Shown here: in pieces, positions 1-13,169 of the stretch
Numbering within the stretch: position 1 is the stretch's first letter
How the letters are laid out: each line of letters starts with the position of its first letter
Program-made: the position numbers and the translations under genes
IMG/VR virus record: IMGVR_UViG_2721755711_000005
Coordinates: 1-13,169 of that record
Direction: 5' to 3' (one strand)
DNA length: 13,169 bases
Source: a virus
Lineage: Duplodnaviria; Heunggongvirae; Uroviricota; Caudoviricetes
Notes under the pieces: model-generated
Database searches by the model: none
The model's input: the letters and a program-made list of their open reading frames with translations, nothing else
Told to the model about the DNA's origin: nothing

Positions 1-1242
1 ATGGCACGAAAAACCACCCCACTAACCATTACGGAGATCAAAAACGCACGGCCAGGGGAAAAGGAATACACCCTGCAGGATGGCGGAGGATTATTTCTTC
101 TGGTGAAGCCCTCCGGATCAAAAATCTGGCGTTTTACGTACTACCGTCCGGCAGATAAAAAACGGACTATTATCAGCCTTGGATCGCTGAATGATGTTTC
201 CCTGTCTGATGCCAGAGAGCGACGGAATGAATACAGGTCACTCATAGCAAAGGGAACTGACCCACAGGACCACGAACGCCGGAAACGTGAAGCAGAGAGC
301 CGGAAAAAGGGCAACACGTTCGAAAAAGTTGCCTCGGACTGGTACGAGATGAAAAAAGGCCAGAATCTGGCTTACAACACGATTAAGGATATCTGGCGAT
401 CCATGGAAAAATACGTATTCCCGTACATCGGAAACACGCCAATAGATACCCTCACCGCTCGCCGCTTTGTTGAGATACTCACCCCCATTAAGGCGCGTGG
501 CAACCTGGAAACCCTGAAACGCGTTTTACAGCGCATCAATGAGGTGATGGATTTTGCTGCCAACAGTGGTCTGATTGACATCAACACCGCCGCGAACGTC
601 CGCAAGGCATTCCCCTCACCCACCAAAAAGCACATGCCAACCATCCGACCGGAACAGCTACCACAGCTAATGCACGATTTATCGGTCGCCAGCATAGAAC
701 GGCAAACCAGATTGCTGATTGAGTGGCAGCTGCTGACCGTTGCACGCCCCGCCGAAGCAGCCGCCGCACGCTGGGAAGAAATAAACCTCGATGCCGAAAC
801 CTGGACGATTCCAGCCGGACGCATGAAGATGCGCCGTGACCATGTGATCCCCCTTTGCGGTCAGGCTATGGCTGTACTGGAAACCATGAAGCCAATCAGC
901 GCACACAGGGAACACGTTTTTCCCAGCCTTAAAAATCCGATGCTACCAATGAGCAGCCAGACCGCTAACGCTGCATTACGCCGGATGGGATACGCTGGTG
1001 TGCTGGTGTCTCACGGATTACGCGCCATATTCAGTACAGCAGCGAACGAGGAAGGATTCGAGCCGGACGTAATCGAGGCCGCACTCGCACACGTGGACAC
1101 GAACGAGGTAAGGCGAGCATATAACCGAAGTAACTACCTGGAAAAGCGCGTGGTGCTTATGCGCTGGTGGGGTGAATTTGTGGAAGCCGCAGCAACCGGA
1201 GTGACCATAGCCAGTGGTAAAAGGGGTATCCGTGCAGTGTAA
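1..1242 (+). CDS. int: Tyrosine-type site-specific integrase, P4/CP4-57 family, with N-terminal arm-binding domain
   Basis: 413-aa ORF. N-terminus (LTITEIKNARPGEKEYTLQDGGGLFLLVKPSGSKIWRFTYY) matches the DUF4102-type arm-binding domain of P4-like integrases. C-terminus carries catalytic-region motifs (HVIPLCGQA, SHGLRAIFST, RAYNRSNYLEKR with the candidate Tyr nucleophile). Window starts exactly at the ATG. Confidence 0.93.
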   Translation: MARKTTPLTITEIKNARPGEKEYTLQDGGGLFLLVKPSGSKIWRFTYYRPADKKRTIISLGSLNDVSLSDARERRNEYRSLIAKGTDPQDHERRKREAESRKKGNTFEKVASDWYEMKKGQNLAYNTIKDIWRSMEKYVFPYIGNTPIDTLTARRFVEILTPIKARGNLETLKRVLQRINEVMDFAANSGLIDINTAANVRKAFPSPTKKHMPTIRPEQLPQLMHDLSVASIERQTRLLIEWQLLTVARPAEAAAARWEEINLDAETWTIPAGRMKMRRDHVIPLCGQAMAVLETMKPISAHREHVFPSLKNPMLPMSSQTANAALRRMGYAGVLVSHGLRAIFSTAANEEGFEPDVIEAALAHVDTNEVRRAYNRSNYLEKRVVLMRWWGEFVEAAATGVTIASGKRGIRAV

Positions 1243-1343
1243 CTGTACAAAAAACCAGTACAACCAGTGCAAACCATGCTAAACCATCGTATAATCACCA
1301 CATACAGAGAGACCCGACTCTTGAAATTCAAGGAGTTATCCGA

Positions 1344-1586
1344 GTGTTTTTCAATGAAAAGGTATCCCCTGCCTATGGTGAAGGCCTTCAGTTGGCCTTA
1401 ATGGCAAATCGTGAATTCTGGTCAACGTACGATCCGGAAGACAAATCAACAGCCCCCACAAAACACGAGGTAGTCAGTTTTTTGCGCTCGCGTGGCGCAT
1501 CGAAAAATCTGGCTGAAAGCATCGACAAGGTGCTGAGACCCACCAGCCTTAAATGCGGTGGGCGACCTAAGAAGTGGAAGCGGTAA
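1344..1586 (+). CDS. Hypothetical small protein (80 aa), GTG start
   Basis: ORF with AGGAG at 1332-1336, 7 nt before the GTG, followed by a rho-independent terminator. No family recognised. Confidence 0.4.
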   Translation: MFFNEKVSPAYGEGLQLALMANREFWSTYDPEDKSTAPTKHEVVSFLRSRGASKNLAESIDKVLRPTSLKCGGRPKKWKR

Positions 1587-1591
1587 TCACA

Positions 1592-1621
1592 ATAGCGGCC
1601 CCTTGCGGTCGCTATTTTTTT
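1592..1621 (+). terminator. Rho-independent terminator
   Basis: Hairpin ATAGCGGCC / GGTCGCTAT with a 6-nt loop, followed by a run of 7 T. Confidence 0.6.
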
Positions 1622-1655
1622 GCAAAAAGAAAGCGTAATCAATGAGATAAAAAAC

Positions 1656-1692
1656 AGTGGGTACCGTTTTAAAACGGTGGGTACTGTTTTTC
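1656..1692. promoter_or_regulatory. Putative operator upstream of alpA: direct repeats flanking a 16-bp palindrome
   Basis: Two copies of GTGGGTAC(C/T)GTTTT at 1657-1670 and 1677-1690. A perfect palindrome ACCGTTTTAAAACGGT at 1663-1678 lies between them, about 65 bp upstream of the alpA start. Confidence 0.4.
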
Positions 1693-1755
1693 CCGCCCTG
1701 CCCTGTTTTACCGTATTTATCACCGGAATACGCCGGATTAATGAGGTAAAACACG

Positions 1756-1962
1756 ATGGAAGTAATCAGAAAAATTCTTACCCGTCAGGAAGTAAAAAAT
1801 ATTCTGCGCATCAAGGCAGACAGTTCGCTACAGGACATGATCAACGCCGGAAAATTCCCGAAAGGCTTCAAAATCGGTCTGCGTCGTGTTGGCTGGTATG
1901 AAGATGAGGTGCTGGCCTGGCTGAAAGAACGCGAGGAAGAAGCGCGCGGAACGGCTGCGTAA
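1756..1962 (+). CDS. alpA: AlpA-family (Phage_AlpA) transcriptional regulator / excisionase-like HTH protein
   Basis: 68 aa. ILTRQEVKNILRI...FPKGFKIGLRRVGWYEDEVLAWLKER matches the AlpA signature (helix-turn-helix followed by VGW-E-E---WL--R). GAGGT RBS 8 nt upstream. Position just after int is typical. Confidence 0.85.
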   Translation: MEVIRKILTRQEVKNILRIKADSSLQDMINAGKFPKGFKIGLRRVGWYEDEVLAWLKEREEEARGTAA

Positions 1963-2238
1963 TGGTGTGAGGCGTAACACAATGAACATAACAAAAAGCG
2001 CCCCATTGCCGGAGCGCCCTTGCGAACAATTAGCCTGCCGCACCAAAAATAAATATGTGCAGGGGAATTATATCAACCGTGTGGCGAAGCGCCACAATTG
2101 CCGGATAACGGGCAAAACAAAGGCGACCGCAAAGGGTCGCCAGTGGATATTACGGCAAATCAAACTTGAACGCATCGCCAACAATGCCACATTTGCGGCT
2201 GGTGAGCAATGTGATCAGCGTGCTGGTTTGCTGGTGGG

Positions 2239-2436
2239 CTATTCCTGCTCTTTAGCATCGCCATGCTGCGATGTTTTCCAGGTATGCGATCCCATTTTTG
2301 TGCGCCTGTACTCTTTAAGGAACTTCTCAAGGACAAACGCACATGGCGCGAATCTTTCCTGTTCATGTTCGCTTACCGCGTTTTTGCGTTGTTTTTTCCT
2401 GGATGAAGATAATTTCTTTAATGATTTGTCAGTCAT
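2239..2436 (-). CDS. Hypothetical small basic protein (65 aa), paralogous 3' end to neighbouring small gene
   Basis: Lys/Arg-rich ORF ending ...DAKEQE. Its last codons and stop share DNA identity with the 3' end of gene 2494-2673 (TCCTGCTCTTT core). Confidence 0.4.
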   Translation of the reverse strand: MTDKSLKKLSSSRKKQRKNAVSEHEQERFAPCAFVLEKFLKEYRRTKMGSHTWKTSQHGDAKEQE

Positions 2437-2493
2437 CGTAGATACCTGTAACCCTGTGCGCCACAGTTCACCGCACCACGGCGCTGGTGATGG

Positions 2494-2673
2494 TTACTCC
2501 TGCTCTTTGGCCTTGCGCCGCTGGCGGTACTCAACTTCTCGCTTTAATGCTGCTGTTACAAACTGCCCTGTACTTTCACCAGGCATTTTTACCGCCTCAA
2601 CATTGTTCATAACTTCATGCGGAACCCTTGCCGCAACTGTTTGTGATTTTGCGTTTACTGCTTTTGTCGCCAT
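2494..2673 (-). CDS. Small putative DNA-binding protein (59 aa from ATG 2673; possibly ribbon-helix-helix-like), candidate repressor
   Basis: ORF track starts at GTG 2682, but the in-frame ATG at 2673 has a GAGGGG RBS 8-9 nt upstream. Sequence MATKAVNAKSQTVAARVPHEVMNNVEAV...QFVTAALKREVEYRQRRKAKEQE has a beta-helix-helix-like pattern. Divergent from the operator at 2724-2775. Confidence 0.5.
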   Translation of the reverse strand: MATKAVNAKSQTVAARVPHEVMNNVEAVKMPGESTGQFVTAALKREVEYRQRRKAKEQE

Positions 2674-2723
2674 GTTGTGCACCCCTCACAAAAAACAAAT
2701 GCAGTATGCAGGAAAAAAAATAA

Positions 2724-2775
2724 GTGTTCAACACTTGACGTGTTTAACACCTAGATTTAAATTGGTGTTCAACAC
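2724..2775. promoter_or_regulatory. Operator: three 11-bp palindromes GTGTT(C/T)AACAC in a divergent promoter region
   Basis: GTGTTCAACAC at 2724-2734, GTGTTTAACAC at 2740-2750, GTGTTCAACAC at 2765-2775. TTGACG at 2735-2740 (-35-like) lies between sites 1 and 2; TAAATT at 2758-2763 is a possible -10 after a 17-bp spacer. Confidence 0.6.
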
Positions 2776-2872
2776 CTTATTAATGCAAGGTGCAGAAACG
2801 ACGAAACCCGGCAGTGCGCGAACACTAACCGGGCTTCTAACCACCAACGATAGCAAGATTATCGAGGTAGCT

Positions 2873-3235
2873 ATGAGAAATCATAACCAAACTAAACCCG
2901 AATTTATATACACCTTTACGGCGCTACACCGAGATCGCATGGCTGACGGCGCAACTACGGTACATGTAGCCGCTGACACGCTGGTTGATGCCAGCAGGAT
3001 GGTTAAAGAGATGGGCTACGTTGCGGCGTTCTGGAAAGGGCGCGAAGAAAACACGCTGTTTATTCAGAAATGCGAAAACAATTTTATCTGGCGTTTTATC
3101 GCCCTGAGCACGGCGCAACCGCGCATGATTACCATTGAGGCCACCAGCGAACAGGAAGCACGCCAGCAATCCCCGGCTGGCTGCGTGATGGTATTCGCCG
3201 CCCGTATTCGTCAGGGGGTGCACCATGTGCAATAA
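2873..3235 (+). CDS. Hypothetical protein (120 aa), first gene of plus-strand replication operon
   Basis: In-frame ATG at 2873 within the long ORF 1967-3235, with GAGGT 4 nt upstream. The upstream part of that ORF overlaps the two minus-strand genes and the operator, so only this 3' part is called. Confidence 0.45.
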   Translation: MRNHNQTKPEFIYTFTALHRDRMADGATTVHVAADTLVDASRMVKEMGYVAAFWKGREENTLFIQKCENNFIWRFIALSTAQPRMITIEATSEQEARQQSPAGCVMVFAARIRQGVHHVQ

Positions 3236-3455
3236 AAACACGCCGGACGCAGCAGGCGAAGCATTGAAAGTACTGATACATGCGCTTGTGGATATAAATT
3301 GCATGGTAGAGATCATGGAGAAGAAATCACAGTCGGAGTACGACAAAAGAAAATTTAAAACAATAAAAATAATTACCAAAAACTCACTGACAAAAGCTAC
3401 AGACATCCTCAATGAGGACACTAAAAGAATCAGGGAGAAACTGTGTGATGCATAA
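3225..3455 (+). CDS. Hypothetical small protein (76 aa), largely AT-rich
   Basis: ATG overlaps the stop of the upstream gene; AGGGGGTG RBS. Lys-rich product; the gene runs into a strongly AT-rich patch. Confidence 0.4.
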   Translation: MCNKNTPDAAGEALKVLIHALVDINCMVEIMEKKSQSEYDKRKFKTIKIITKNSLTKATDILNEDTKRIREKLCDA

Positions 3456-3675
3456 AATACCTTTTGATGTTCTTATTCATTCTGAAAACGCATTAATCCG
3501 CGCAAAGGAAATGGAGGCATTATTACTTAAGTTAATGGAAGTGCCGGAAAATGGCGATGAATCATATCCCATGATGTTTTCTGCCGTGCACACATTATTA
3601 ACGCCAGTAATTAACGAATTAAATACGGTGATGGCAATTCACGAGAATAATAAAGCGCATCACACCGGAGAATAA
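3448..3675 (+). CDS. Hypothetical small protein (75 aa from ATG 3448), AT-rich
   Basis: ORF track starts at 3412, but ATG 3448 has an AGGGAGAA RBS about 8 nt upstream and overlaps the stop of the preceding ORF by 8 nt (translational coupling). No family recognised. Confidence 0.45.
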   Translation: MHKIPFDVLIHSENALIRAKEMEALLLKLMEVPENGDESYPMMFSAVHTLLTPVINELNTVMAIHENNKAHHTGE

Positions 3676-3680
3676 AAACC

Positions 3681-3980
3681 ATGAAACAGAAAATTTCTGA
3701 CTTTACTGCCAGCGGCCTCCCTCGGTCTGAAATCCGCCCCGGCGATATTTTCCGGGATAACTACGGCGGCACGGTAACGATTAAACACGTGGCGGGACGG
3801 TGCGTTACTTACCGCCGTGATGGGTACGGCTATGACTGCGTGATGCCTGCTTATCAGTTCCGGCGTGATTTTTCCCTGGTACAGGCAGCGCAACGCAGTA
3901 AGCCCACCAGCAGGGAAAAAGCACGGGAAAATATTAAGAAAATAAAAAGCATGCTCAGCGCATCCAGAGGTAAAAAATGA
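3681..3980 (+). CDS. Hypothetical protein (99 aa)
   Basis: GGAG RBS upstream. Stop overlaps the start of the helicase gene (3977) by 4 nt. Confidence 0.5.
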   Translation: MKQKISDFTASGLPRSEIRPGDIFRDNYGGTVTIKHVAGRCVTYRRDGYGYDCVMPAYQFRRDFSLVQAAQRSKPTSREKARENIKKIKSMLSASRGKK

Positions 3981-5383
3981 AACTGGCACCGAACGTAAAA
4001 CTGTTACCGAAAGATAAACACACTGAGGCGGTTATTTTTGCGGGTGATAATGCTCACTCCTTTGCAGAACATTACATGATTGCACAGGCCAAAAAAGCAG
4101 GCGATCCCATCCCTCCGGTTTACCTGGGCCGTTATCAGTTAAGCGAACTGGACAACTTACAGATTGTTGATGAAGGACGATACAGAGCAAAGGTCATACG
4201 CGCCGGAAACCTGGACGATATGCAGATGCTGACCATTGCCACAAAACTGGCGATCGCCGGAGTCCAGGAGGCGCGGCTACTTTCTGAAAATTTCGAACTG
4301 CTGGAGAACTGGAGCGACCAACTACCACGACTACGGGAAACATGGGAGAGAGGGGAAAGCCTGGTCATGAATGGCAGAAAGCGAAAAATCACGCTTCCCA
4401 TCTCATGGGGTTCTGAGGGATTCGACGCGCAGCAAAGCTACGTAATTAAGGGGCTTATTCCGGCTGAATCATTATGCAGCACCTACGGCGCGAGTGGTTC
4501 CTATAAATCGTTCCTCGCCATTTCCTGGTCGTGCCATGTTGCCACAGGTATGGCATGGGGAGGCCGCAGGGTAAGTAAGGGCGCGGTTATCTATATCGCT
4601 GGTGAAGGCAGCATGGGCGTAAAACGCCGCGTAAAGGCGTGGGAGATAACCCACGACAAGGTGGTTACAGATTTGTGCATCATTAACGCGCCGGTATTCC
4701 CTGCATCGCCTGACTATGTGGAGCAGGTTATCAGGACTGCCGGACTTGTTAAGAGCAGAACGGGCGAAAATGTGCGGCTGATTGTGATCGACACGCTGGC
4801 CCGTTGCTTTGGTGGGAATGATGAAAATGATTCCCGTGATATGGGCGCATTTATCCAGGGGTGTGACGCGATAAAGCAGGCCACAGGGGCCACGGTGCTG
4901 GTGGTTCACCATTCCGGCAAGGATGAAACAAAGGGGGCGCGTGGTTCCAGCGCATTCCGTGCCGCGCTTGATGCAGAGTACCGAATCAGCCGGGAAAATT
5001 CAGACGTTACAGCACTGGTGGCGGCGTGTACGAAGATGAAGGACGCAGAGGAGCCAAAAGAAAGCGCATACGACCTTAAAAGCGTGGAGGTGTTCACCGA
5101 TACAGATGGCGAAGAGATTGTGTCTATGGTGGTGATTGACGTTCCCCGCGCCCCTGCTGAACTGGAACGCATCGAGGAGGCCGGGAACAAGACGGAGAAT
5201 CACGCCGCATTATGGCAGTGCATCAGAACGCGGACGGCACACGGGGAATCATGCACTATTGCCCTGCTGCGCGACGATATGAAAAAGCTGGGGTATGAGA
5301 TGAAGCACTTCCGGCGCTGGCTGTACAAGCTGGAAAAAGACGGCGTGATCACTATCGACGGCAATGACGTGCATCCACTGTAA
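3977..5383 (+). CDS. Replication protein with RecA-fold ATPase domain (AAA_25 / RepA-like helicase)
   Basis: 468 aa. Walker A YGASGSYKS, Walker B RLIVIDTLARCF, and a VLVVHHSGKDETKGARGSSA sensor region typical of RepA/DnaB-like AAA_25 ATPases. Immediately followed by an iteron array. Confidence 0.8.
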   Translation: MKLAPNVKLLPKDKHTEAVIFAGDNAHSFAEHYMIAQAKKAGDPIPPVYLGRYQLSELDNLQIVDEGRYRAKVIRAGNLDDMQMLTIATKLAIAGVQEARLLSENFELLENWSDQLPRLRETWERGESLVMNGRKRKITLPISWGSEGFDAQQSYVIKGLIPAESLCSTYGASGSYKSFLAISWSCHVATGMAWGGRRVSKGAVIYIAGEGSMGVKRRVKAWEITHDKVVTDLCIINAPVFPASPDYVEQVIRTAGLVKSRTGENVRLIVIDTLARCFGGNDENDSRDMGAFIQGCDAIKQATGATVLVVHHSGKDETKGARGSSAFRAALDAEYRISRENSDVTALVAACTKMKDAEEPKESAYDLKSVEVFTDTDGEEIVSMVVIDVPRAPAELERIEEAGNKTENHAALWQCIRTRTAHGESCTIALLRDDMKKLGYEMKHFRRWLYKLEKDGVITIDGNDVHPL

Positions 5384-5585
5384 AAGTGGGGGATAAAAGT
5401 GGGGATAGCGGGGAATTTAACAAAATTGAAACGCTATTCCCCACTTTCTGGCCTGTATACATCCAAAAAAGTGGGGAGTAAAAAATACAATGAAAAACAA
5501 AGAATTAGACTTACCCAAAAAACGAGGTGGGAAGCAAGTGGGAAATTTTAAAAGTGGGGAACAAAAGTGGGGGTAGTGGGGAATG
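5384..5585. repeat. Iteron array, putative satellite replication origin
   Basis: About 8 direct copies of AAAGTGGGGA-like units (5384-5395, 5395-5407, 5465-5478, 5524-5534, 5535-5545, 5549-5560, 5563-5573, 5574-5585) plus one inverted copy CCCCACTTT at 5439-5447, with AT-rich spacers, directly downstream of the helicase gene. Confidence 0.8.
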
Positions 5586-6356
5586 AATAAAGAAAATATG
5601 ACCTGTCAGGGGATGAGCTACAAAGAACGCGAAGCACTCAAGGCCTTTGCGGGGCAGTGTGAGAAGCACGGAGATATACAGAGCCTAACCAGAACGCTGG
5701 TCATGATTGCGCACTGGATGCGACAGAGCAAGGCGGTGAGTTTTACGGAATACGCCAGCCAGTGGACAGAGGCACAGCGTGAACGGAGCGACGGCAATCA
5801 CTCAACACCCGAAATGGCGAAGCAATGGCCTTTCAGTGGTAAACGGTGCATCAATCCGGGCGGATCTGATTATTACCCGTGCGGAACAGAAAAAGAGCGA
5901 CAGAATGATGAGGTGGAAATTAAACACGCAGTAACGGTAATTCTTGCCGCTTACCCATTTTTTAACCGCGATGGACTTGAACTGTACAGCCGTGATAAGG
6001 CATGGGTGCACCCACTTGATTATGCGCCCTTCATGGCGGAGGCGATGAGCTGTTTACGCTGGATAAGGGAGAACAACCTTACCGACTGTAAGATTGCATC
6101 ATTCCCTGGAAAAAATCCGACATCCTACGGCCTGAAACATTGTGTTGAGCGTGTGAATCAGAGAAGAGCTAAGGGCGACGGGCAACCAACAGAGCCGACA
6201 TACATCACAAACGGCGCATTAATCGCCGCAATGGTCGCATCGGGTTATCGGGTGAAGCGAACGGGAAGAATGAACTGCCTGTTTAATATCTCACACAAAC
6301 AGCTTAAGCGCGCACTGATGACAGGACCAGTAAAAACCGGAGAACAGACAGCATGA
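5583..6356 (+). CDS. Hypothetical protein (257 aa); start codon uncertain
   Basis: Long ORF whose stop overlaps the SSB start. Weak RBS at the first ATG; alternative in-frame starts at Met6 and Met11. No family recognised. Confidence 0.55.
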   Translation: MNKENMTCQGMSYKEREALKAFAGQCEKHGDIQSLTRTLVMIAHWMRQSKAVSFTEYASQWTEAQRERSDGNHSTPEMAKQWPFSGKRCINPGGSDYYPCGTEKERQNDEVEIKHAVTVILAAYPFFNRDGLELYSRDKAWVHPLDYAPFMAEAMSCLRWIRENNLTDCKIASFPGKNPTSYGLKHCVERVNQRRAKGDGQPTEPTYITNGALIAAMVASGYRVKRTGRMNCLFNISHKQLKRALMTGPVKTGEQTA

Positions 6357-6775
6357 CAGCACAGATAGCGGCTTACGGGCGGCTGGTGGCTGACCCGCAG
6401 TTAAAGACCACCAGCAAAGGGACACAAATGGCGATGGCGAGTATGGCGGTTCCCCTGCCGTGCAGCCAGGCAGATGACGGAACGGCGACGATGTGGTTAT
6501 CCGTCCTGGCGTTTGGCAGACAGGCCGACGCACTGGCCAGACACCACAAAGGCGAACTGGTGAGCGTGGCGGGTAACATGCAGGTAAGCCAGTGGACAGG
6601 CCAGAACGGCGAAACGCGGCAGGGCTGGCAGGTTATCGCAGACAGCGTAATCAGTGCGCGAACGGCGCGACCGGGCGGCAAAAAAGGTCAACAGGGCCAG
6701 GCTACTGACGCGCTGAACAGGGCAAAACAACAGGCGGGTAATGATGATCCGTACGGGGACAACATACCGTTTTAA
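6353..6775 (+). CDS. ssb: Single-stranded DNA-binding protein (short SSB)
   Basis: 140 aa. N-terminal OB-fold-like region (AAYGRLVADPQLKTT...), Gly/Gln-rich linker and an acidic C-terminal tail DDPYGDNIPF resembling the canonical SSB tip DDDIPF. Confidence 0.8.
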   Translation: MTAQIAAYGRLVADPQLKTTSKGTQMAMASMAVPLPCSQADDGTATMWLSVLAFGRQADALARHHKGELVSVAGNMQVSQWTGQNGETRQGWQVIADSVISARTARPGGKKGQQGQATDALNRAKQQAGNDDPYGDNIPF

Positions 6776-6811
6776 TTCACAACAGCGAACAGAGTTATTA
6801 CAGGGGAAAGC

Positions 6812-7336
6812 ATGACAAAGCTGACCATTAACCGAAAACCGAAAGGCATTTACGGCACGCTGCAGAAAACGACGCAGGCGATACAGCAGCAGGATAAAAC
6901 CACATCGGCGCATAAAGTGATACCCGGCAATCAGAACGCACAGCAGAAGCCCACAGGGGCGACACCGTGGCGGCATATGACCAAACGCCAGCGCAAAAAC
7001 CGCAGACGCGTTAATCGCCTCACTGAGATGTGGCCTGACTTATTCAGCCGGGAAGCGCCAAAACCGCTGAAGGTGGGGATATTCGACGACCTTATGCAGG
7101 ATATCGCCGTCAGGGGGCTGGCATTCGGGCCGGGGGCATTACGTGCGACGCTGGCATCTTATACGCAGTCTCCGCGCTATTACCGCGCCTTAATGGCTGG
7201 TGGGGTACGCTACGACCTGAAAGGCCAGCCATATGGGGAGGTTACACCACAGGAACAGCAGGAGGCAGAAACGCGGCTGATGGCACTGAATGAGAAGCGC
7301 AAACGCCGGGCAGCAAAGGAGAAGACGGGCACGTGA
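6812..7336 (+). CDS. ProQ/FinO-domain RNA-binding protein
   Basis: 174 aa. PLKVGIFDDLMQDIAVRG...LRATLASYTQSPRYYRALMAGGVRYDLKGQPYGEV aligns with the ProQ N-terminal FinO-like domain (PLKIGIFQDL...[35 protein letters not shown]). Basic C-terminal tail. Confidence 0.8.
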   Translation: MTKLTINRKPKGIYGTLQKTTQAIQQQDKTTSAHKVIPGNQNAQQKPTGATPWRHMTKRQRKNRRRVNRLTEMWPDLFSREAPKPLKVGIFDDLMQDIAVRGLAFGPGALRATLASYTQSPRYYRALMAGGVRYDLKGQPYGEVTPQEQQEAETRLMALNEKRKRRAAKEKTGT

Positions 7337-7608
7337 TTCACGACAGCAAAGCGGAAGAACTGGAGGCTAAAGGGCTGTACCGAAGAGCGGCGGCGCGGTG
7401 GGCTGAGGTTATGCAACTGGTGAACACCGATAAGGAGCGCGAACAGGCGGCAAAGCGTCGCGCGGAATGTATCCGTAAGGCAGCACGCTCACCCGTTATG
7501 GCGGATAACTTCGGGGCGCTGAAAGAGGCTGTAAACCGCACTCATGCGGTGATGGGGATGGAAGACGCGGGTAAATCCGTCTGGCGGAACTACCCGAAGC
7601 AGCCCTGA
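7333..7608 (+). CDS. PerC/Pch-family transcriptional activator-like protein, GTG start
   Basis: 91 aa. KAEELEAKGLYRRAAARWAEVM...EREQAAKRRAECIRKA...AVNRTHAVMG matches my recollection of the PerC/Pch signature (LE-GL-RRAA-W--VM...RR--C...NRT). AAGGAG 11 nt upstream; overlaps the stop of the ProQ-like gene. Confidence 0.65.
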   Translation: MIHDSKAEELEAKGLYRRAAARWAEVMQLVNTDKEREQAAKRRAECIRKAARSPVMADNFGALKEAVNRTHAVMGMEDAGKSVWRNYPKQP

Positions 7609-7705
7609 CAGTAACCAGTGATGCCGGATATTATCCTGAAAAATGGCCATCACTCCCGTGGGCGGATAACATAAAATCCCGCATATGCGCACATACACAG
7701 ACGAA

Positions 7706-7728
7706 GCCGGAACACTCCGGCTTTTTTT
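7706..7728 (+). terminator. Rho-independent terminator ending the replication operon
   Basis: GCCGGA-ACAC-TCCGGC hairpin followed by a run of 7 T. Confidence 0.75.
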
Positions 7729-7805
7729 ACGGGTCCTCCTGATGGGGTACCCTTACCGCGGGGCGACGGACGCGCGGAAAACGGCTAATTTTTGAATTTT
7801 TATCG
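7722..7805 (+). repeat. cos-like element A (cosQ-like plus degenerate cosN-like), paired in inverted orientation with 12515-12595
   Basis: TTTACGGGTCCTCC...CGCGGGGCGACGGACGCGCGGAAAACGGCTAATTTTTGAATTTTT resembles the bona fide cos at 8548-8640. Its reverse complement recurs at about 90% identity at 12515-12595. Confidence 0.6.
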
Positions 7806-8074
7806 GTCATCACCACCAGCGCAATTTATTGATAATGAAGGTTAAAAAAATTCCTGGTGTCGAAAACGCCTGTTTTTTGTTCACCACTGAATCATGCCGC
7901 ATCACGATAACCCACAAGGCTGGTGGTGATGCGTTATGCTCCCTACGTTGCCATCCTCCTGACCTCATGGCATTATCCGGCGTGAACGAGCGGTTATTCT
8001 CCGTACTCTTAATCGTTGTTCATGGTTATTTGCTTTGTGGTAGCTTACATTTCCTGATGGTTATTATCCTTCCA

Positions 8075-8098
8075 CCCCGTAATCACGGGGTTTTTTTT
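8075..8098 (+). terminator. Rho-independent terminator in the non-coding region upstream of cos
   Basis: CCCCG-TAATCA-CGGGG hairpin followed by a run of 8 T. Lies inside the compositionally implausible ORF 7829-8167. Confidence 0.55.
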
Positions 8099-8547
8099 GT
8101 CTGCGATTTGCCGTTCTCCGTTGCGCTGGTGGTAACGTCACGACATGTCACCATCACGTCACGCTGATGGCGAAAGTCAGGGTTAACCAGTACCGGAACG
8201 GGTAGCCCGATGTACTGTTACCGTTCTGCTGGCTGGTGGAGTAATTGATAACGGTTATCATCAACGGGAGGGGTGGATCAAATCCCTGTAGTCCTGGCTG
8301 TCAGGGACCGCCGCCCAACCCTTCTTCACATCGCCGCAGGTTCGAAAACTTTTTTTTGGGAAGGTGCGCACAGACTTGATAGATAAAACCTATCAGACAA
8401 AACCACGCCAACCCCGCGCCATTGCTGGCATCGTTAAAAAAACTCACTCCACCAGCAGGCTAAAAAACCGTGATTTTTCCGGTTTTATGGGCTGAAAAGG
8501 GGCTCCCTAAAAAACACCTCTTACACTGCCGGACAGGAGCGGTGGCT

Positions 8548-8770
8548 TTTCACGGGTCCTTTCCGGGGATCTGAAACACCACGGGGCGGCAGACGCGCAG
8601 ATTTTCACTATTTATGAAAATTTTTCAGGGAAAAAGCATGTCGGTACTTCTTGCATGTAACATTATGTTTTTATTGCAACTAACTATCATAAACATACGA
8701 CACCATAACGCCGGAAAATCCCGTTTTTCAGGCGTTTCATGTCGGAGGTGGTTTTTGATGAGGATTTGAT
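8548..8770 (+). other. cos: Lambda-type cos site: cosQ-like (8548-8583), cosN (about 8584-8595), cosB (8596-8770)
   Basis: TTTCACGGGTCCTTTCCGGGGATCTGAAACACCACG|GGGCGGCAGACG|CGCAGATTTTCACTATTTATGAAAATTTTTC closely parallels the phage lambda cos junction as I recall it (...TTTACGGGTCCTTTCCGGTGATCCGACAGGTTACG|GGGCGGCGACCT|CGCGGGTTTTCGCTATTTATGAAAATTTTCC), and sits immediately upstream of a Nu1-like gene exactly as in lambda. Confidence 0.85.
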
Positions 8771-8772
8771 AA

Positions 8773-9357
8773 ATGAATGTTAACAAAAAGAGACTGGCGG
8801 AGATTTTCGGTGTTGATCCGCGCACAATTGAGCGCTGGCAGATGCAAGGGCTTCCCCATGTATCTGGTGGCGGAAAAGGTGTGGAGGTGACTTTCGACTC
8901 TACACAGGTGATCGAATGGTATGTACAGAGGGAGAAGGAGATCGAAAACGAAAAACTCCGCAGGGAGCTTGATGATTTACGTGCTGCTGGTGAATCAGAT
9001 TTACAGCCAGGCACAACAGAGTACGAACGCTACCGTCTCACCAAAGCACAGGCGGACGGGCAGGAACTGAAGAACGCCAGAGAGACAGGGGAAGTTATAG
9101 ATACTGAGTTCGTACTCTGTGCGCTTCGTGGACTGGCGAGTCAGATTTCTTCGATCATGGATAGTTTGCCGCTCACAATGCAAAGGCAGTTCCCCGGGAT
9201 GACTCCGGCAATGCTCGATGGCCTGAGGAAGGAAACAGCACGAGCCTGTAATGCGTGCGCTAAAACTGCCGATAACCTACCCCGCATTCTGGAAGACTAT
9301 CTGATGGAAACAACCGGAAACGTGCCGGAGAAGTTACGGCAACAGAAAGGTGAGTGA
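8773..9357 (+). CDS. Nu1-like small terminase subunit homologue (satellite packaging-redirection protein, Rpp-like)
   Basis: 194 aa, collinear with lambda Nu1 along its whole length: [28 protein letters not shown]...[12 protein letters not shown]...[11 protein letters not shown]...[28 protein letters not shown] versus Nu1 MEVNKKQLADIFGASIRTIQNWQEQGMP...GGGKGNEVLYDS...[11 protein letters not shown]...[28 protein letters not shown]. No large terminase gene follows. Confidence 0.9.
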
Positions 9358-9383
9358 CAACCGCGCAATTATTGAACAAAACT

Positions 9384-9442
9384 AAGAAAGGATCTGATAA
9401 CGTTATTTTTGGCCCAAAATGACCACTGTCAGATCCTTTCTT
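9384..9442 (+). terminator. Perfect 14-bp inverted repeat hairpin after terS (possible terminator or protein-binding site)
   Basis: AAGAAAGGATCTGA (9384-9397) and TCAGATCCTTTCTT (9429-9442) with a 31-nt loop, followed by TTTTTCTG. The loop is unusually large for an intrinsic terminator. Confidence 0.4.
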
Positions 9443-9494
9443 TTTCTGATGATTTTACGATTAAACAATGAGTTACAGAGAAGAAGAACGGATC

Positions 9495-9586
9495 TGACTT
9501 TTCCCGAAAAATTTTCATAAACAGTTAAGAATTGCGCGTATCCGTACCCCCGGCGCTCAAGATTCTGGAAAGGACCCGTGACACCT
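9495..9586 (-). repeat. cos-like element D, inverted copy of the cos region, downstream of terS
   Basis: Reverse complement reads GTGTCACGGGTCCTTTCCAGAATCTTGAGCGCCGGGGGTACGGATACGCGCAATTCTTAACTGTTTATGAAAATTTTTCGGGAAAAG, which parallels cos 8548-8632 in its cosQ core, its GC-rich centre and its TTTATGAAAATTTTTC block (roughly 75% by eye). Confidence 0.6.
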
Positions 9587-9590
9587 GACC

Positions 9591-9614
9591 AACAAAAAAG
9601 CCCCCGAAGGGGGC
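9591..9614 (-). terminator. Rho-independent terminator of the minus-strand toxin-immunity operon
   Basis: GCCCCC-GAA-GGGGGC hairpin. On the minus strand it is followed by TTTTTTGTT, immediately 3' of the immunity gene stop (9619). Confidence 0.75.
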
Positions 9615-9618
9615 TAAA

Positions 9619-9867
9619 TTACGCATCTTTAAAACTGGGTTTGCCATTAGCTAAACGCCAGGTTTTAACTTCTTGTACGATGGCTTCCGGGCTATCGTCT
9701 TTTCCGTTCTCTGGATAAAAAATTAGATCAGAGCCTGATGGATGTTCAGAGAGGCGCCTGAATTCTCTGACTAACTGCTCGCTTTCTTTTTCTGTTCCTT
9801 CTGCATTACATATTTTTCGAACAAGATCTAAGAATTCATTTTCAGTATAGTCGTTTATTGTTTTCAC
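9619..9867 (-). CDS. Colicin/pyocin DNase immunity protein (Im7/Im9 family)
   Basis: 82 aa, GTG start. [82 protein letters not shown] aligns along its full length with Im9 (...[79 protein letters not shown]). One nt separates it from the toxin stop. Confidence 0.92.
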
Positions 9868-9868
9868 G

Positions 9869-11560
9869 TTATTTTCCCCTGTGAATTTCTATATGCCGCT
9901 TTGGTGTTGTGATACCCATATTATCAACGTTATAAACTTCGCCCCCCTCACTTATAGGTTTAATATGGTGTATCTCGTAACGTTCCCTCCCACCAACTCG
10001 ATCCACTTCCCTTGTGAATGGTGAACGTCCTTTGCGAATGTTCGTGAGGTTGTGTGCTCTGAACTGTCTTGACAAATCAGCATCGTTTGCCACTTCTGCC
10101 CAAAATGCCTCCCTGAATCGATCAAAATTCGCAAATGTTCGCCCACGCATCCGCTCCGCAATCTGGCTGGGTACTGGTGCACCATTTCCCTTATCGGCAT
10201 CCACCAGCCACGCCCCGCTAATTTTTTGTCCTTTCCCTGTTACCTGCCCGGCGTTATTCCTGATGTAAATATAAATCGGCGGTATATCCGGGAATGGCAG
10301 GATCAGAATGTAATCCGCAAAATCCTTTTCTTCCGGGGCCGGGCTGGTTGTGGCGTGTAATCCCGTGTCATCCGGTAACGGGTCCACCATCACCGGATTC
10401 GGCAGCACTGGCGGGTACTGATTTCCCGTGTGGTACGGTACATCAATCCCCGGATTATCCGGCGTCCAGATGAGTGTGATACGCGGGTCTTCCTCCGTGG
10501 TGAACGTGTACGCCTTTCGTCTGTCGTCCCACTCCATCCGGCGCACGCGCACCCTGTCCTGTCCCGGTGGCGTGTGCCAGCCATGCGGCACGGGGTTCCC
10601 CCGGCTGTTCGTCTCCCAAGTAAAGCGAACACGGGTAGGCACTTCCCTGACCTGTTCGGCCCTCATACGGTCGATAAAATCCTGCTCCCCGTCATTCAGC
10701 CGGCCGGGCATCATCCCTATCAGAAACGCCGCCAGTGGCAGCCCCGCAACCCCGGTCGCGGTTTCGCCCACGACGGCCCACGTTCCCCGGATGGCAAAAT
10801 TTCCCGCCACCGGACGCAGAACGCTCGCCCCGGCAATTGCCGCTCTGGCCCGTTGTGCGCGCTCCGCTTCCTCAACCGCACGCTGATAATCCATTTCCTC
10901 GTGATGGCCGTTCCACCATTTCCACAGTGCACTGCGTTTCTTCGGCTTCGGAATATCCTCCGGCGCAATCAGTTTTTTCTTTTTGACCGCCTGTGCACGC
11001 TGCGGGGCTTCCGTGTCTGTCACCGGGTCAGTCTGCGGAACGGCCTGATAAATCCCCATCGGTGCAAAGTTGGTATGCGGCTCCCGCTGGTCGCCCGCGT
11101 CGTTGCATCCCGCACCGCGCAGACAGGATTTTGCAAACACCCGGTTACGTTCCCGTTCTTCCTCCCGGCGTTTTTCTTCAGCTTCCCGTTCTGCCCTGCG
11201 TTGTGCTATCAGTTCCGCCTGTTTTTTCTGTGCAATTTCTGCCGGCGACGGCCCCGCCCCCATCCACTGACCGAGCGGGGCAATAATCCGGTTTGAACCT
11301 TCAGGGCAGCCACAGTGAACAACACAGCCATCAACGGCAATGGGAATATCTATCACCTTAAAACGGGCTTCTCCTTCTGCCACCATGCCGGGCTTTCCGC
11401 ACGCCGGGCAGGGAGTGGTTTTGTCTCCCTTACGAATAAGACCGTTACCACAGACGTTGTAGTTAGGGACAGGAAGGGAAGTAATCAGCCATGCGCCGGT
11501 GGTGGTTTTGTCACAGGAAAGCGCCATTCCCCTGCCGTGTATATCCGGTCTGTATGTCAT
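9869..11560 (-). CDS. Polymorphic toxin: Cys-rich N-terminal domain, charged linker, central domain of unknown function, C-terminal colicin E9-type HNH DNase
   Basis: 563 aa. The C-terminal ~130 aa ([49 protein letters not shown]...[55 protein letters not shown]) align with the colicin E9 DNase domain, including the HNH motif. N-terminus has multiple Cys ([16 protein letters not shown]). GGAG RBS 8 nt upstream; ATGA overlap with the upstream gene. Confidence 0.9.
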
Positions 11561-12045
11561 GGCTTACACTCCGGCACCAGAAAATCCGCTGGCATACTTT
11601 CGCCTTCACGACAACAAAGTAACGTTATTCGCTGCGGCGTACTGATAATCTCATCCCCGTTATCCAGTTGGCTGCCAACCAGAGCATACCCTTTTCCGTG
11701 ACAACTGAACGCACTGCCGGAACCGCTGATAATACGGGCCGTAGTGCCGTCCTGATACGTCACCTCATCCCCGACCATCGCCATTTCTGCCATCTCTCCG
11801 GTGCTGTCAGCGACTTCGCAGCCGGAACTGGCGGAAGACACCACCCCGCCATTACGGGTAAGGCTACCGGTAGTGGCATGTCGCCAGATAGCCACAATCG
11901 GATGTTGACGGCAAAATTCCTCCTGCTCCCTGATTATCGCCAGCGCATCATCGGACATATCAGCAAGCGCTTCCTCTGTGAAAGGGGATTTATCCAGTTC
12001 TGCCAGTACATCGGCGGTCAGTTCGTTGGTATATTGCTTCATCAT
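11557..12045 (-). CDS. Hypothetical protein (162 aa) co-transcribed with the toxin: acidic helical N-terminus, Gly/Ser-rich C-terminal half, Cys cluster; candidate PAAR-like partner, adaptor or chaperone
   Basis: First gene of the minus-strand operon, translationally coupled to the toxin by an ATGA overlap. C-terminal half AMVGDEVTYQDGTTARIISGSGSAFSCHGKGYALVGSQLDNGDEII is loosely reminiscent of PAAR-type repeats; ends with LLCCREGES...PECKP. Confidence 0.6.
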   Translation of the reverse strand: MMKQYTNELTADVLAELDKSPFTEEALADMSDDALAIIREQEEFCRQHPIVAIWRHATTGSLTRNGGVVSSASSGCEVADSTGEMAEMAMVGDEVTYQDGTTARIISGSGSAFSCHGKGYALVGSQLDNGDEIISTPQRITLLCCREGESMPADFLVPECKP

Positions 12046-12514
12046 GTTTCTGTTTTTCCTGTGGTTAACAATCGACCAGAATCATAATGAAAGGGAATGC
12101 AAAAAAATTGATGGATATCAAAATGAAAAATAAAATCATCCCGGTAAAACAGGATATCTACCCCACCAGCATCCCTGGATTTTCAGATAGTTGCTTTTAG
12201 CCTCTGAACAACATCTGCTGGTGGCTGATAATTACAATAATTCCTGCCCCCTGGCGTTTCTGAGCATGTTTACCGCGAATTTTGCGCAAAACACCTTAAC
12301 AATTCTTAAATTTTAAAAACACTTCAGTGATAAGCATCACCGCTCCCGCTCACATTTGACACAGGCAACTCCATCTGGCAGGTGAAAATCAAATTTATTT
12401 ATATATTTCAATTGATTGTAAACTGGTCTAATGACAGGGGAGAAAAAAGACTGTACAGGTGAAAACAGAAATAATTCTTAATTATCAATGAATTATCACA
12501 CATGCTGCCGCCGC

Positions 12515-12595
12515 CATGAAAATGCAAAAACTAGCCGTTTTCTGCGCATCCGTCGCCCCGCGGTAAGGGGCACCCCACCGGGAGGACCCACGACG
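12515..12595 (-). repeat. cos-like element C, inverted partner of element A (7722-7805)
   Basis: Reverse complement CGTGGGTCCTCCCGGTGGGGTGCCCCTTACCGCGGGGCGACGGATGCGCAGAAAACGGCTAGTTTTTGCATTTTC matches 7726-7805 at about 90% by eye. Confidence 0.6.
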
Positions 12596-12884
12596 ATCAG
12601 GGAGTTTTATCAACGTCGTGTGTTATGCCGGATTAACTGCGTACGTAATACGTGCACATCCCGGACAGGAGCAGCCAGAATCAGCGCCGCTGACGTTGTT
12701 TTGTGGTTATCCCCCTGTCATGAATCATCGCAATGGTTTTATGTGTTCTGCGTTGCGCTGGTGGGTTATTCCACCATTGGTGGGAAACATGGCACCACAT
12801 CCACCAGCTTAAACGCGCTTCACCTTCCCGGCATCAGTCGCCACAATTACGGCATTGCTTTCCATCACCACGGAGGCCATGACC

Positions 12885-13169
12885 ATGACCGAAGCCGAAA
12901 TGCTCAAAATGATTCGCCGTGCTGCCGGAATCAGCCAGGCAGCAGGCAAACAGGAGGCCACGCAACCGGACAGCGTGATAGCCGAAAATTACGCGCGTGT
13001 GGTGGCTGATGTGATGCGCCGTGACGGTATCGAGCTTAACGGCGTGGATATGCGCGATATACGAACCAGAGTTCTCGAGTTGCTGGCATGTCGTCGCCGT
13101 TCTCAGCAACGGAGGGAGAGCGCGAAAAATACTTACCAGTGGAAGAAGCCGGAGCGGTTACGGCGGTAG
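12885..13169 (+). CDS. Hypothetical protein, 3'-truncated by the window end
   Basis: The ORF runs to the window edge. GGAGG at 12872-12876 is 8 nt upstream of the ATG at 12885 (the ORF track starts at 12855 with no RBS). No family recognised. Confidence 0.4.
   Translation: MTEAEMLKMIRRAAGISQAAGKQEATQPDSVIAENYARVVADVMRRDGIELNGVDMRDIRTRVLELLACRRRSQQRRESAKNTYQWKKPERLRR

Follow-up and report, generated by a model that had tools for sequence, protein, structure and literature searches.

A FinO-domain gene and a PchE-like gene closing the replication block in a phage-inducible chromosomal island from Escherichia coli

FinO-domain proteins are encoded on F-like plasmids (FinO), on the IncI plasmid pCol1B9 (FopA) and on the chromosomes of Escherichia coli and Salmonella (ProQ), and the existence of phage- and plasmid-borne FinO/ProQ genes has been remarked on in general terms (PMC9977716). 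The PerC family is represented by PerC on the EAF plasmid of enteropathogenic E. coli (EPEC) and by PchA/B/C on lambdoid prophages of enterohemorrhagic E. coli (EHEC), and PerC and PchABC activate LEE1 in these organisms according to the literature cited in PMC6265319 and PMC11773190. PerC regulators are also "commonly found in PICIs", the phage-inducible chromosomal islands (Pick et al. 2025, PMC11773190); among E. coli PICIs, PerC variants occur in some and RgdR in all (Fillol-Salom et al. 2018, PMC6092414). For satellite FinO-domain genes, the literature searched contained annotation-level mentions (PMC13612085, PMC13230959) and no functional study. Here we analyzed a stretch of 13,169 nucleotides (the window; positions 1 to 13,169 of the IMG/VR record IMGVR_UViG_2721755711_000005, Caudoviricetes), in which a proQ-like open reading frame (ORF1) is directly followed by a perC-like one (ORF2).

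ORF1 scored 85.5 bits against the Pfam profile PF04352 (ProQ/FinO; cut-off 27, E = 3e-24), with residues 64–168 aligned to positions 5–108 of the 109-position profile. ORF2 scored 123.8 bits against PF06069 (PerC; gathering cut-off 22.6, E = 3.4e-36) over positions 1–89 of 90. An earlier sequence-only reading of this DNA had made the same two family assignments and had named the hidden Markov model search beforehand as one refuting test; both assignments passed it. Homologues in RefSeq carry the PGAP labels "ProQ/FINO family protein" and "PerC family transcriptional regulator", and PHROGs assigns the two ORFs to families whose function is unknown or given as "transcriptional activator". The stop of the proQ-like gene and the start of the perC-like gene share four nucleotides (GTGA), with a Shine-Dalgarno AGGAG about 8 nt upstream of the perC-like GTG; the two genes are translationally coupled. 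Across eight to nine diverged islands, the median pairwise ratio of nonsynonymous to synonymous substitution rates (dN/dS) was 0.29 for the proQ-like and 0.21 for the perC-like gene, at dS values of up to 0.6 and more than 1, respectively (maxima across islands 0.6–3.6). Both ORFs are therefore real genes, constrained by purifying selection. They stand at the end of a block with the order DUF4222 gene, RepA-type helicase gene, iteron origin, orf257, ssb, proQ-like, perC-like, terminator and cos; this order, the terminator and the cos site bear out the position at the end of a satellite replication block that the earlier reading had given them. We hold with moderate confidence that the two genes are a two-gene accessory cassette closing the replication block of a PICI, in which a FinO-type RNA binder is joined to a PchE-like regulator working through protein contacts.

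In a sequence search of the PDB, the proQ-like protein matched FinO (1dvo, E = 3e-12), the N-terminal domain of ProQ (5nb9, E = 9e-12), NMB1681, RocC and Lpp ProQ. An AlphaFold (AF2) model built on 21 clade members showed a core at about residues 75–145, with a predicted local distance difference test score (pLDDT) of about 90, preceded by a basic helix at about 52–73 (KRQRKNRRR) and followed by a long C-terminal helix (146–171). Residues 1–50 are disordered (pLDDT <50) yet carry a sequence-conserved motif, MTKLTINRKPKG. Foldseek placed FinO, NMB1681 and RocC on top with a probability of 1.00, including the terminator-bound form of RocC, and its top 26 matches were to FinO, NMB1681, RocC and Lpp ProQ with template modeling scores to the target of 0.62–0.84. 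The RNA-contact residues of RocC, whose roles are described in PMC9674577, were transferred to the proQ-like protein via profile alignment. The beta-turn glycine G52 corresponds to G89, R75 to R111, Y87 to Y123 and R97 to R133, so that the Tyr/Arg pair of the 3'-nucleotide pocket (RocC Y87/R97, ProQ Y70/R80) is present as Y123/R133. For all four residues, conservation across the 21 clade members is complete or at least 90%; in the clade alignment K87, Y117 and R133 are invariant and G89, R111 and Y123 near-invariant. Through this conserved pocket the protein would bind the base and the 3' U-tail of intrinsic-terminator hairpins, and in this way it may shield or match a small group of RNAs from the island, the helper phage or the host. 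A contribution of the basic N-terminal extension, as in FinO, is plausible. Post-transcriptional control by the FinO-domain protein, as suggested by the sequence-only reading, is a reasonable proposal.

The proQ-like protein does not count as FinO or as ProQ in the strict sense. It scored below the NCBIfam cut-offs for both FinO (NF010317, 69.1 versus 136 bits) and the ProQ equivalog (NF003434, 57.6 versus 127 bits), and it ends after the FinO domain and one helix, the C-terminal ProQ domain being missing; it is a stand-alone FinO-domain protein. With FinO and FopA it shares a place on a mobile element as a distal gene in a long operon, the basic helix or extension ahead of the FinO core, the pocket Tyr/Arg and the equivalent of Arg75, and FinO (1dvo) was also its best PDB match by Foldseek, at 31% identity. 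It differs from them in residing on a chromosomal phage satellite and in occurring with several replicon types instead of one. The FinO-domain fold and the RNA-contact residues are likewise common to the proQ-like protein and chromosomal ProQ, NMB1681 and RocC. Unlike chromosomal ProQ, however, it has neither the linker nor the C-terminal Tudor-like domain, and it is horizontally mobile, being present in only a part of E. coli genomes.

The nearest studied relative of the perC-like protein is PchE of E. coli O157:H7 Sakai (63% identity), and identity to PchA is 53%. Conserved positions are D4, G14, Y16-R17-R18-A19-A20, R22-W23, R42-R43 and C46. In the structural model, the conserved N-terminal part of about 55 residues forms a helical unit resembling a tetratricopeptide repeat (TPR), and a DNA-binding fold was not seen; a PDB sequence search with the protein gave zero matches. 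The AraC negative regulator (ANR) profile NF033650 gave sub-threshold matches in 13 of 27 relatives (E ≤ 0.01, best E 1.1e-5), and the perC-like protein itself scored 19 bits against a curated cut-off of 32, which leaves it outside this family. Like ANR proteins such as Aar it is small and helical, and the weak matches span the whole 54-position profile (residues 6–52), whereas PerC-like proteins have about 35 additional C-terminal residues. A link to ANR has been proposed earlier for the PICI PerC homologue EcCIMP1_025 (Pick et al. 2025, PMC11773190).

PerC and PchA/B/C belong to the same Pfam family and share the N-terminal core AEELExKGxYRRAAxRW, but their carriers are a plasmid or the lysis region of lambdoid prophages, and LEE1 activation is not established for the PICI group, whose nearest homologues are negative or opposite in effect (PMC11773190, PMC6265319). 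EcCIMP1_025 represses LEE1 (PMC11773190), the PerC homologues of EcCICFT073 and EcCIEDL933 left LEE1 unaffected according to PMC11773190, which cites Porter 2005, and PchE is reported to have little or no effect on LEE1 (PMC6265319). The sequence-only suggestion that ORF2 acts as an activator of virulence regulators finds no support in these closest relatives. Over-expressed PchE lowered csgD and curli expression and raised flagellar expression (Uhlich laboratory; PMC6265319, PMC7369912). In uninduced cells, pchE of Sp7 is co-transcribed with ssb and upstream ORFs from a 5' end 675–680 nt upstream, downstream of the primase gene (PMC7369912, PMC6265319); its expression is low and decreases further upon SOS induction (PMC6265319, PMC7369912). 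Transcription in the uninduced state that falls on SOS fits an accessory role in the resident state. We infer that the perC-like protein would act by contacting other proteins, either regulators or nucleoid proteins of the host, and not by binding DNA, and that it may tune adhesion, motility or LEE-type regulons of the host, up or down according to the allele. Sequence does not predict which of the two directions applies.

The accessory character of both genes is reflected in their distribution. Among 5426 complete E. coli genomes compared by nucleotide similarity, which makes all these counts lower bounds, 1092 (about 20%) contained proQ-like DNA, at up to nine places per genome, all of them chromosomal and none on plasmids. 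The corresponding number was 1313 for perC-like DNA and 240 for the intact proQ-perC junction. Gene contexts were taken from exact-protein look-ups; a scan based on the clade alignment, with N-terminal, clade-specific peptide patterns, gave two loci. In each retrieved context the proQ-like gene lay inside an int-alpA-rep island, where it was paired with one of three replicase types (AAA_25, DUF927, D5_N/Pox_D5) whose iterons differ. A tblastn search of 50,697 phage records gave seven weak matches to the proQ-like protein and PerC matches of at most 50% identity.

In the Sakai genome, pchE (ECs_1588, also written ECs1588) follows straight after ssb in a region annotated as "prophage Sp7; untypable" (L009 among our retrieved sequences), which is the capsid-forming PICI EcCIEDL933/CP-933C, and EcCICFT073 (L022) likewise has the ssb-perC arrangement. 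The two PerC proteins are PF06069 members of 90–91 amino acids, and their genes occupy the same slot as ORF2, directly after ssb (about 10 nt) at the end of the replication block and followed by a GCCGGA-type terminator. The window differs in that a FinO-domain gene, absent from both model islands, lies between ssb and perC, with perC GTG-coupled to it; it differs from EcCIEDL933 also in being a cos/terS-type island with a toxin module. Because ssb and perC adjoin without a FinO-domain gene in both model PICIs, ssb-perC is the ancestral arrangement and the proQ-like gene an insertion between the two in a subset of PICIs.

In the commonest proQ variant (P0046, listed in 4005 index blocks) perC is 5'-truncated and frameshifted while proQ is intact. 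The truncation in this island type (L010–L013, 9479–10130) comes from an inserted ORF of 138 amino acids without a family match, which overlaps the stop of proQ and stands in place of about the first 11 codons of perC. In L004–L006 perC is cut to 54 amino acids, under the NCBI product name "PchE". The possibility of an obligate pair was ruled out by this distribution, in which the junction is much rarer than either gene and the model PICIs carry perC only; the genes are separable modules, contrary to the joint action that the sequence-only reading had envisaged. A second, more divergent PerC-family gene (42–46% identity) was observed near the right end of L001 (14378–14680), L004 (17294–17590) and L019 (15040–15348); it is present neither in the window nor in its 99% match, L021. 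The absence of proQ from EcCICFT073 and Sp7/EcCIEDL933, its pairing with three replicase types and the decay of perC in many islands make it the best-supported view that neither gene belongs to the core satellite life cycle.

Downstream of perC the transcription unit ends in an intrinsic terminator. A GCCGGA-N4-UCCGGC-type hairpin with a U-run follows perC in the window, L001, L007, L009 (Sp7), L010, L014 and L004, with stems that are partly compensated between islands. The structured 3' untranslated region (UTR) ahead of it is a 95-nt spacer kept in the window, L001 and L007 and absent from L002, L003, L009, L010 and L014; islands without it terminate directly after perC. The sequence 7609–7732 folds with −35.3 kcal/mol (z −2.9), and there is a sigma-70-like match, CTGACA-18-TATTAT, at 7605–7634. 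A small RNA of about 88 nt, reaching from this match to 7728, was considered as a candidate and set aside as unverified, being conserved only among close relatives with the same cos module. Beyond the terminator, the 54-nt cos-like core has an inverted second copy at 12516–12569 (91% complementary), and the pair brackets terS and the toxin module. Homology to the ends of mEp460-type lambdoid phage genomes covers positions 7725–7890. Given this homology and the inverted repeat of the core, the island carries two cos-like sites in opposite orientation; EcCICFT073 has also been described with two cos sites (PMC6739421). A search for the lambda cosN 12-mer, exact or with three mismatches, gave chance-level matches only.

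The cos sites bear directly on one other explanation, also put forward in the sequence-only reading, namely that the PerC-like protein activates the late, packaging and toxin operons of the island while the FinO-domain protein tunes their transcripts. The terS and toxin modules do follow the cassette immediately downstream, and PerC and PchABC are LEE1 activators in EPEC and EHEC (literature cited in PMC6265319 and PMC11773190). However, the proposed target regions begin in or adjoin the cos sites, 7770–8550 starting inside the first and 12046–12500 lying just beside the second. Moreover, perC is naturally dispensable, truncated in L004–L006 and frameshifted in the commonest proQ-bearing type, in islands that are otherwise retained; the terS/toxin module is variable, with terS inverted in otherwise 99%-identical islands, so that no fixed pairing of PerC with a promoter is conserved. 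Since, in addition, the PerC-like model has no DNA-binding fold and LEE1 activation is lacking in the nearest homologues studied (PMC11773190, PMC6265319), we regard this explanation as very unlikely. That the genes are mere passengers without current function is highly improbable. Such a view would accommodate the decay of perC in several lineages and the model PICIs that do without the cassette, but not dN/dS ratios of 0.2–0.3 across islands, invariant RNA-contact residues, a proQ-like gene that stays intact where perC is broken, or its presence in about a fifth of complete genomes at up to nine places each.

Two further explanations concern the RNA partner of the proQ-like protein. FinO with FinP, and FopA with Inc in the control of repZ, are precedents for FinO-domain proteins with a single RNA partner (PMC9977716), and the proQ-like protein might in the same way chaperone one cis-antisense RNA of the island that sets replication, induction (alpA) or icd-type toxicity. 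The gene adjoins the origin and ssb, and a paper on a Vibrio satellite connects a ProQ/FinO-like gene with replication as an episome, solely through annotation (PMC13230959). Terminator-like hairpins occur in the whole window at about twice the number in shuffled sequence (37 versus 17 ± 5.2), convergent terminators surround alpA (1591–1616 on the plus strand, 2141–2122 and 2021–1994 on the minus strand), and a weak symR-like antisense match lies over the icd-like leader. Against this stand fully functional model PICIs that have no proQ-like gene, three unrelated replicases with different iterons, which do not tie the gene to the antisense control of one replicon, and the lack, in Rfam searches of the window and related islands, of a conserved antisense RNA co-occurring with it. 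There is also no stretch of suppressed synonymous change within proQ: conservation at synonymous sites was flat along the gene (0.58–0.88), with no outlier suggesting an overlapping RNA. An antisense partner of this kind is therefore rather unlikely in our estimation. Somewhat less probable still is a conflict factor, in which the proQ-like protein targets helper-phage RNAs or competes with host ProQ for them, favoring the satellite during helper induction or blocking superinfecting phages. PICIs do carry interference and defense functions in accessory slots (PMC6739421; Fillol-Salom 2022, cited in PMC13612085), host ProQ binds prophage-derived small RNAs (PMC9977716), and the gene is satellite-restricted, as the few weak matches among phage records showed. 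On the other hand, expression from the corresponding Sp7 slot is low, constitutive and down on SOS (PMC7369912, PMC6265319), a pattern at odds with a weapon of the induction phase, although Sp7 itself has no proQ.

Several observations weigh against the accessory cassette that we prefer. The serine at the helix N-cap (RocC S70) contacts the hairpin backbone in RocC (PMC9674577) and is also present in FinO, ProQ and Lpp ProQ. In the whole satellite clade this residue and the equivalent of Ser72 are replaced by near-invariant Gly106 and Gly108 (F-G106-x-G108-x-L-R111), a further difference from FinO and FopA; on this substitution RNA recognition may be different or weaker. The start of the helix and the Arg+5 spacing are preserved, and we treat the glycine as a clade-specific variation that does not exclude the protein from the FinO/ProQ family. 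No Rfam family scored above threshold in the window, which yielded no candidate RNA ligand there; the symR-like match on the minus strand at 2800–2872 reached 33 of the required 61 bits, and the C4, isrK, c4-a1b1 and int-alpA RNAs of related islands do not track with proQ. A promoter of the cassette was sought by analogy to the Sp7 5' end, and the intergenic regions at the origin were not alignable between replicase types. The fixed position beside ssb and the origin could instead reflect a replication-linked role. As to the PerC-like protein, the TPR-like assignment concerns a small helical model with C-terminal pLDDT values of 50–75, and short helical hairpins resemble many different folds. 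Published PerC phenotypes stem mainly from over-expression, and a pchE deletion showed no adhesion phenotype (PMC7369912).

In the window itself, the cassette is part of an E. coli PICI integrated beside yejM/tRNA-Pro, in agreement with the satellite context given by the sequence-only reading. Of the features that define PICIs (PMC6092414), the sequence contains int, alpA, a replicase with an iteron origin, cos and a tRNA-adjacent attachment site; it has no phage structural or lysis genes apart from terS and belongs to the class of about 13–15 kb. The window is 99% identical over its full length to the E. coli contig L021, where the island sits between yejM and narP-side genes, and in the related genome L001 the integration site adjoins tRNA-Pro. 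The features are collected in Table 1. The iteron region after the helicase gene is the expected PICI origin; islands with a DUF927 primase have other iterons, of the GCGGGTTAT type, at the corresponding spot.

Table 1. Features of the island and of the proQ-perC cassette (window coordinates)
Feature	Position	Strand	Remarks
int	1-1242		family match
alpA	1756-1962		family match
Divergent control region	2690-2875		between YlcI/YnfO-like gene (2494-2682, -) and Icd-like gene (2873-3235, +)
DUF4222 gene	3681-3980		upstream of helicase gene
RepA/AAA_25 helicase gene	3977-5383
AAAAGTGGGG iterons, two sets	5381-5416, 5549-5584		flank AT-rich stretch after RepA-type helicase gene
ssb	6353-6775	+	Pfam SSB 58.3 bits; directly upstream of proQ-like gene, co-directional
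proQ-like gene (ORF1)	6812-7336	+	ATG start, 174 amino acids
perC-like gene (ORF2)	7333-7608	+	GTG start, 91 amino acids, PchE-like
Structured 3' UTR, 95 nt	7609-7703	+	perC stop to terminator
Intrinsic terminator	~7704-7728	+	AAGCCGGA-ACAC-UCCGGCUU then U7; ends transcription unit
cos-like core, 54 nt	7750-7803		beyond terminator; marks unit boundary, outside cassette
Nu1-type terS	8773-9357
Toxin operon	9619-12045	-	PAAR/pyocin-S/colicin-DNase plus immunity gene
Colicin/pyocin immunity protein gene	9619-9867	-
PAAR + Pyocin_S + colicin/pyocin DNase protein gene	9869-11560	-	563 amino acids
PAAR-motif protein gene	11557-12045	-

At the left end, alpA is flanked by similar inverted terminator hairpins of the GCGRCC-CTTTGC-GGTCGC type (1590–1623 on the plus and 2112–2145 on the minus strand), and an extra minus-strand terminator (2021–1994) lies immediately beyond its stop, so that transcription may converge on this master regulator gene. 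The genes that PICI induction and transfer are reported to require are int, alpA and pri (PMC10111431), which agrees with an accessory status of the cassette. The divergent control region contains three GTGTTCAACAC-like palindromes and a promoter match, TTGACG-17-TAAATT. In related PICIs, the icd-like and int-alpA regions contain the Rfam C4 antisense RNA, isrK, c4-a1b1 target sites and int-alpA RNA (L001 5072–5260 and 5534–5738, L003 4236–4424, L015 4791–4878, L002 1442–1510, L010 1963–2030); none of these was detected in the window. The DUF4222 product shares 68% identity with RgdR (Sakai ECs1581), for which regulation of type III secretion and motility has been published, and has PGD where RgdR has the RGD motif reported as important, with an R one position earlier.

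The right part of the island varies between relatives. L019 (11738–13085) and L020 (11739–13086) are 99% identical to the window up to 8634, and in both the terS segment (window 8231–9581) is inverted and the toxin module missing. In the window a 65-nt imperfect inverted repeat flanks terS (8569–8633 and 9499–9563), and the packaging/accessory region looks invertible or recombination-prone. L007 and L008 have a related toxin module with a different immunity gene (CdiI_5) downstream of a PerC gene. The ORF that runs off the right end of the window (12855–13169) shares 70% identity with ECs_1599, the gene with which Sp7 of Sakai ends, and is a conserved right-end PICI gene without a family match.

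For the PerC-like gene there is little new: both genes are already annotated, reports of PerC genes on Gram-negative PICIs go back to 2018, and homologues have been tested. It does carry a warning for annotation, as "PerC family" on a satellite should not be read as "virulence activator". The useful residue is the FinO-domain gene, which represents a conserved, satellite-restricted clade missing from the two PICIs behind nearly all experiments; its satellite restriction, its prevalence and its glycine N-cap make the clade a modestly interesting experimental lead. A more far-reaching idea, which we put forward as speculative and do not expect to hold, is that this clade, which has a glycine N-cap and a conserved MTKLTINRKPKG N-terminus and occurs in about one in five E. 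coli genomes but in neither phages nor plasmids, serves as a dedicated RNA chaperone in the conflict between phage, satellite and host. It would stabilize or sequester a specific terminator-bearing RNA of the helper phage or the host and so bias development or physiology the satellite's way. If true, satellite biology would gain an RNA-chaperone layer and E. coli a third FinO-domain regulon. If the protein has defined RNA partners, it would offer a new and compact system in which to study the choice of RNAs by FinO domains, with the altered N-cap as a natural variant, and would show how satellites use post-transcriptional control.

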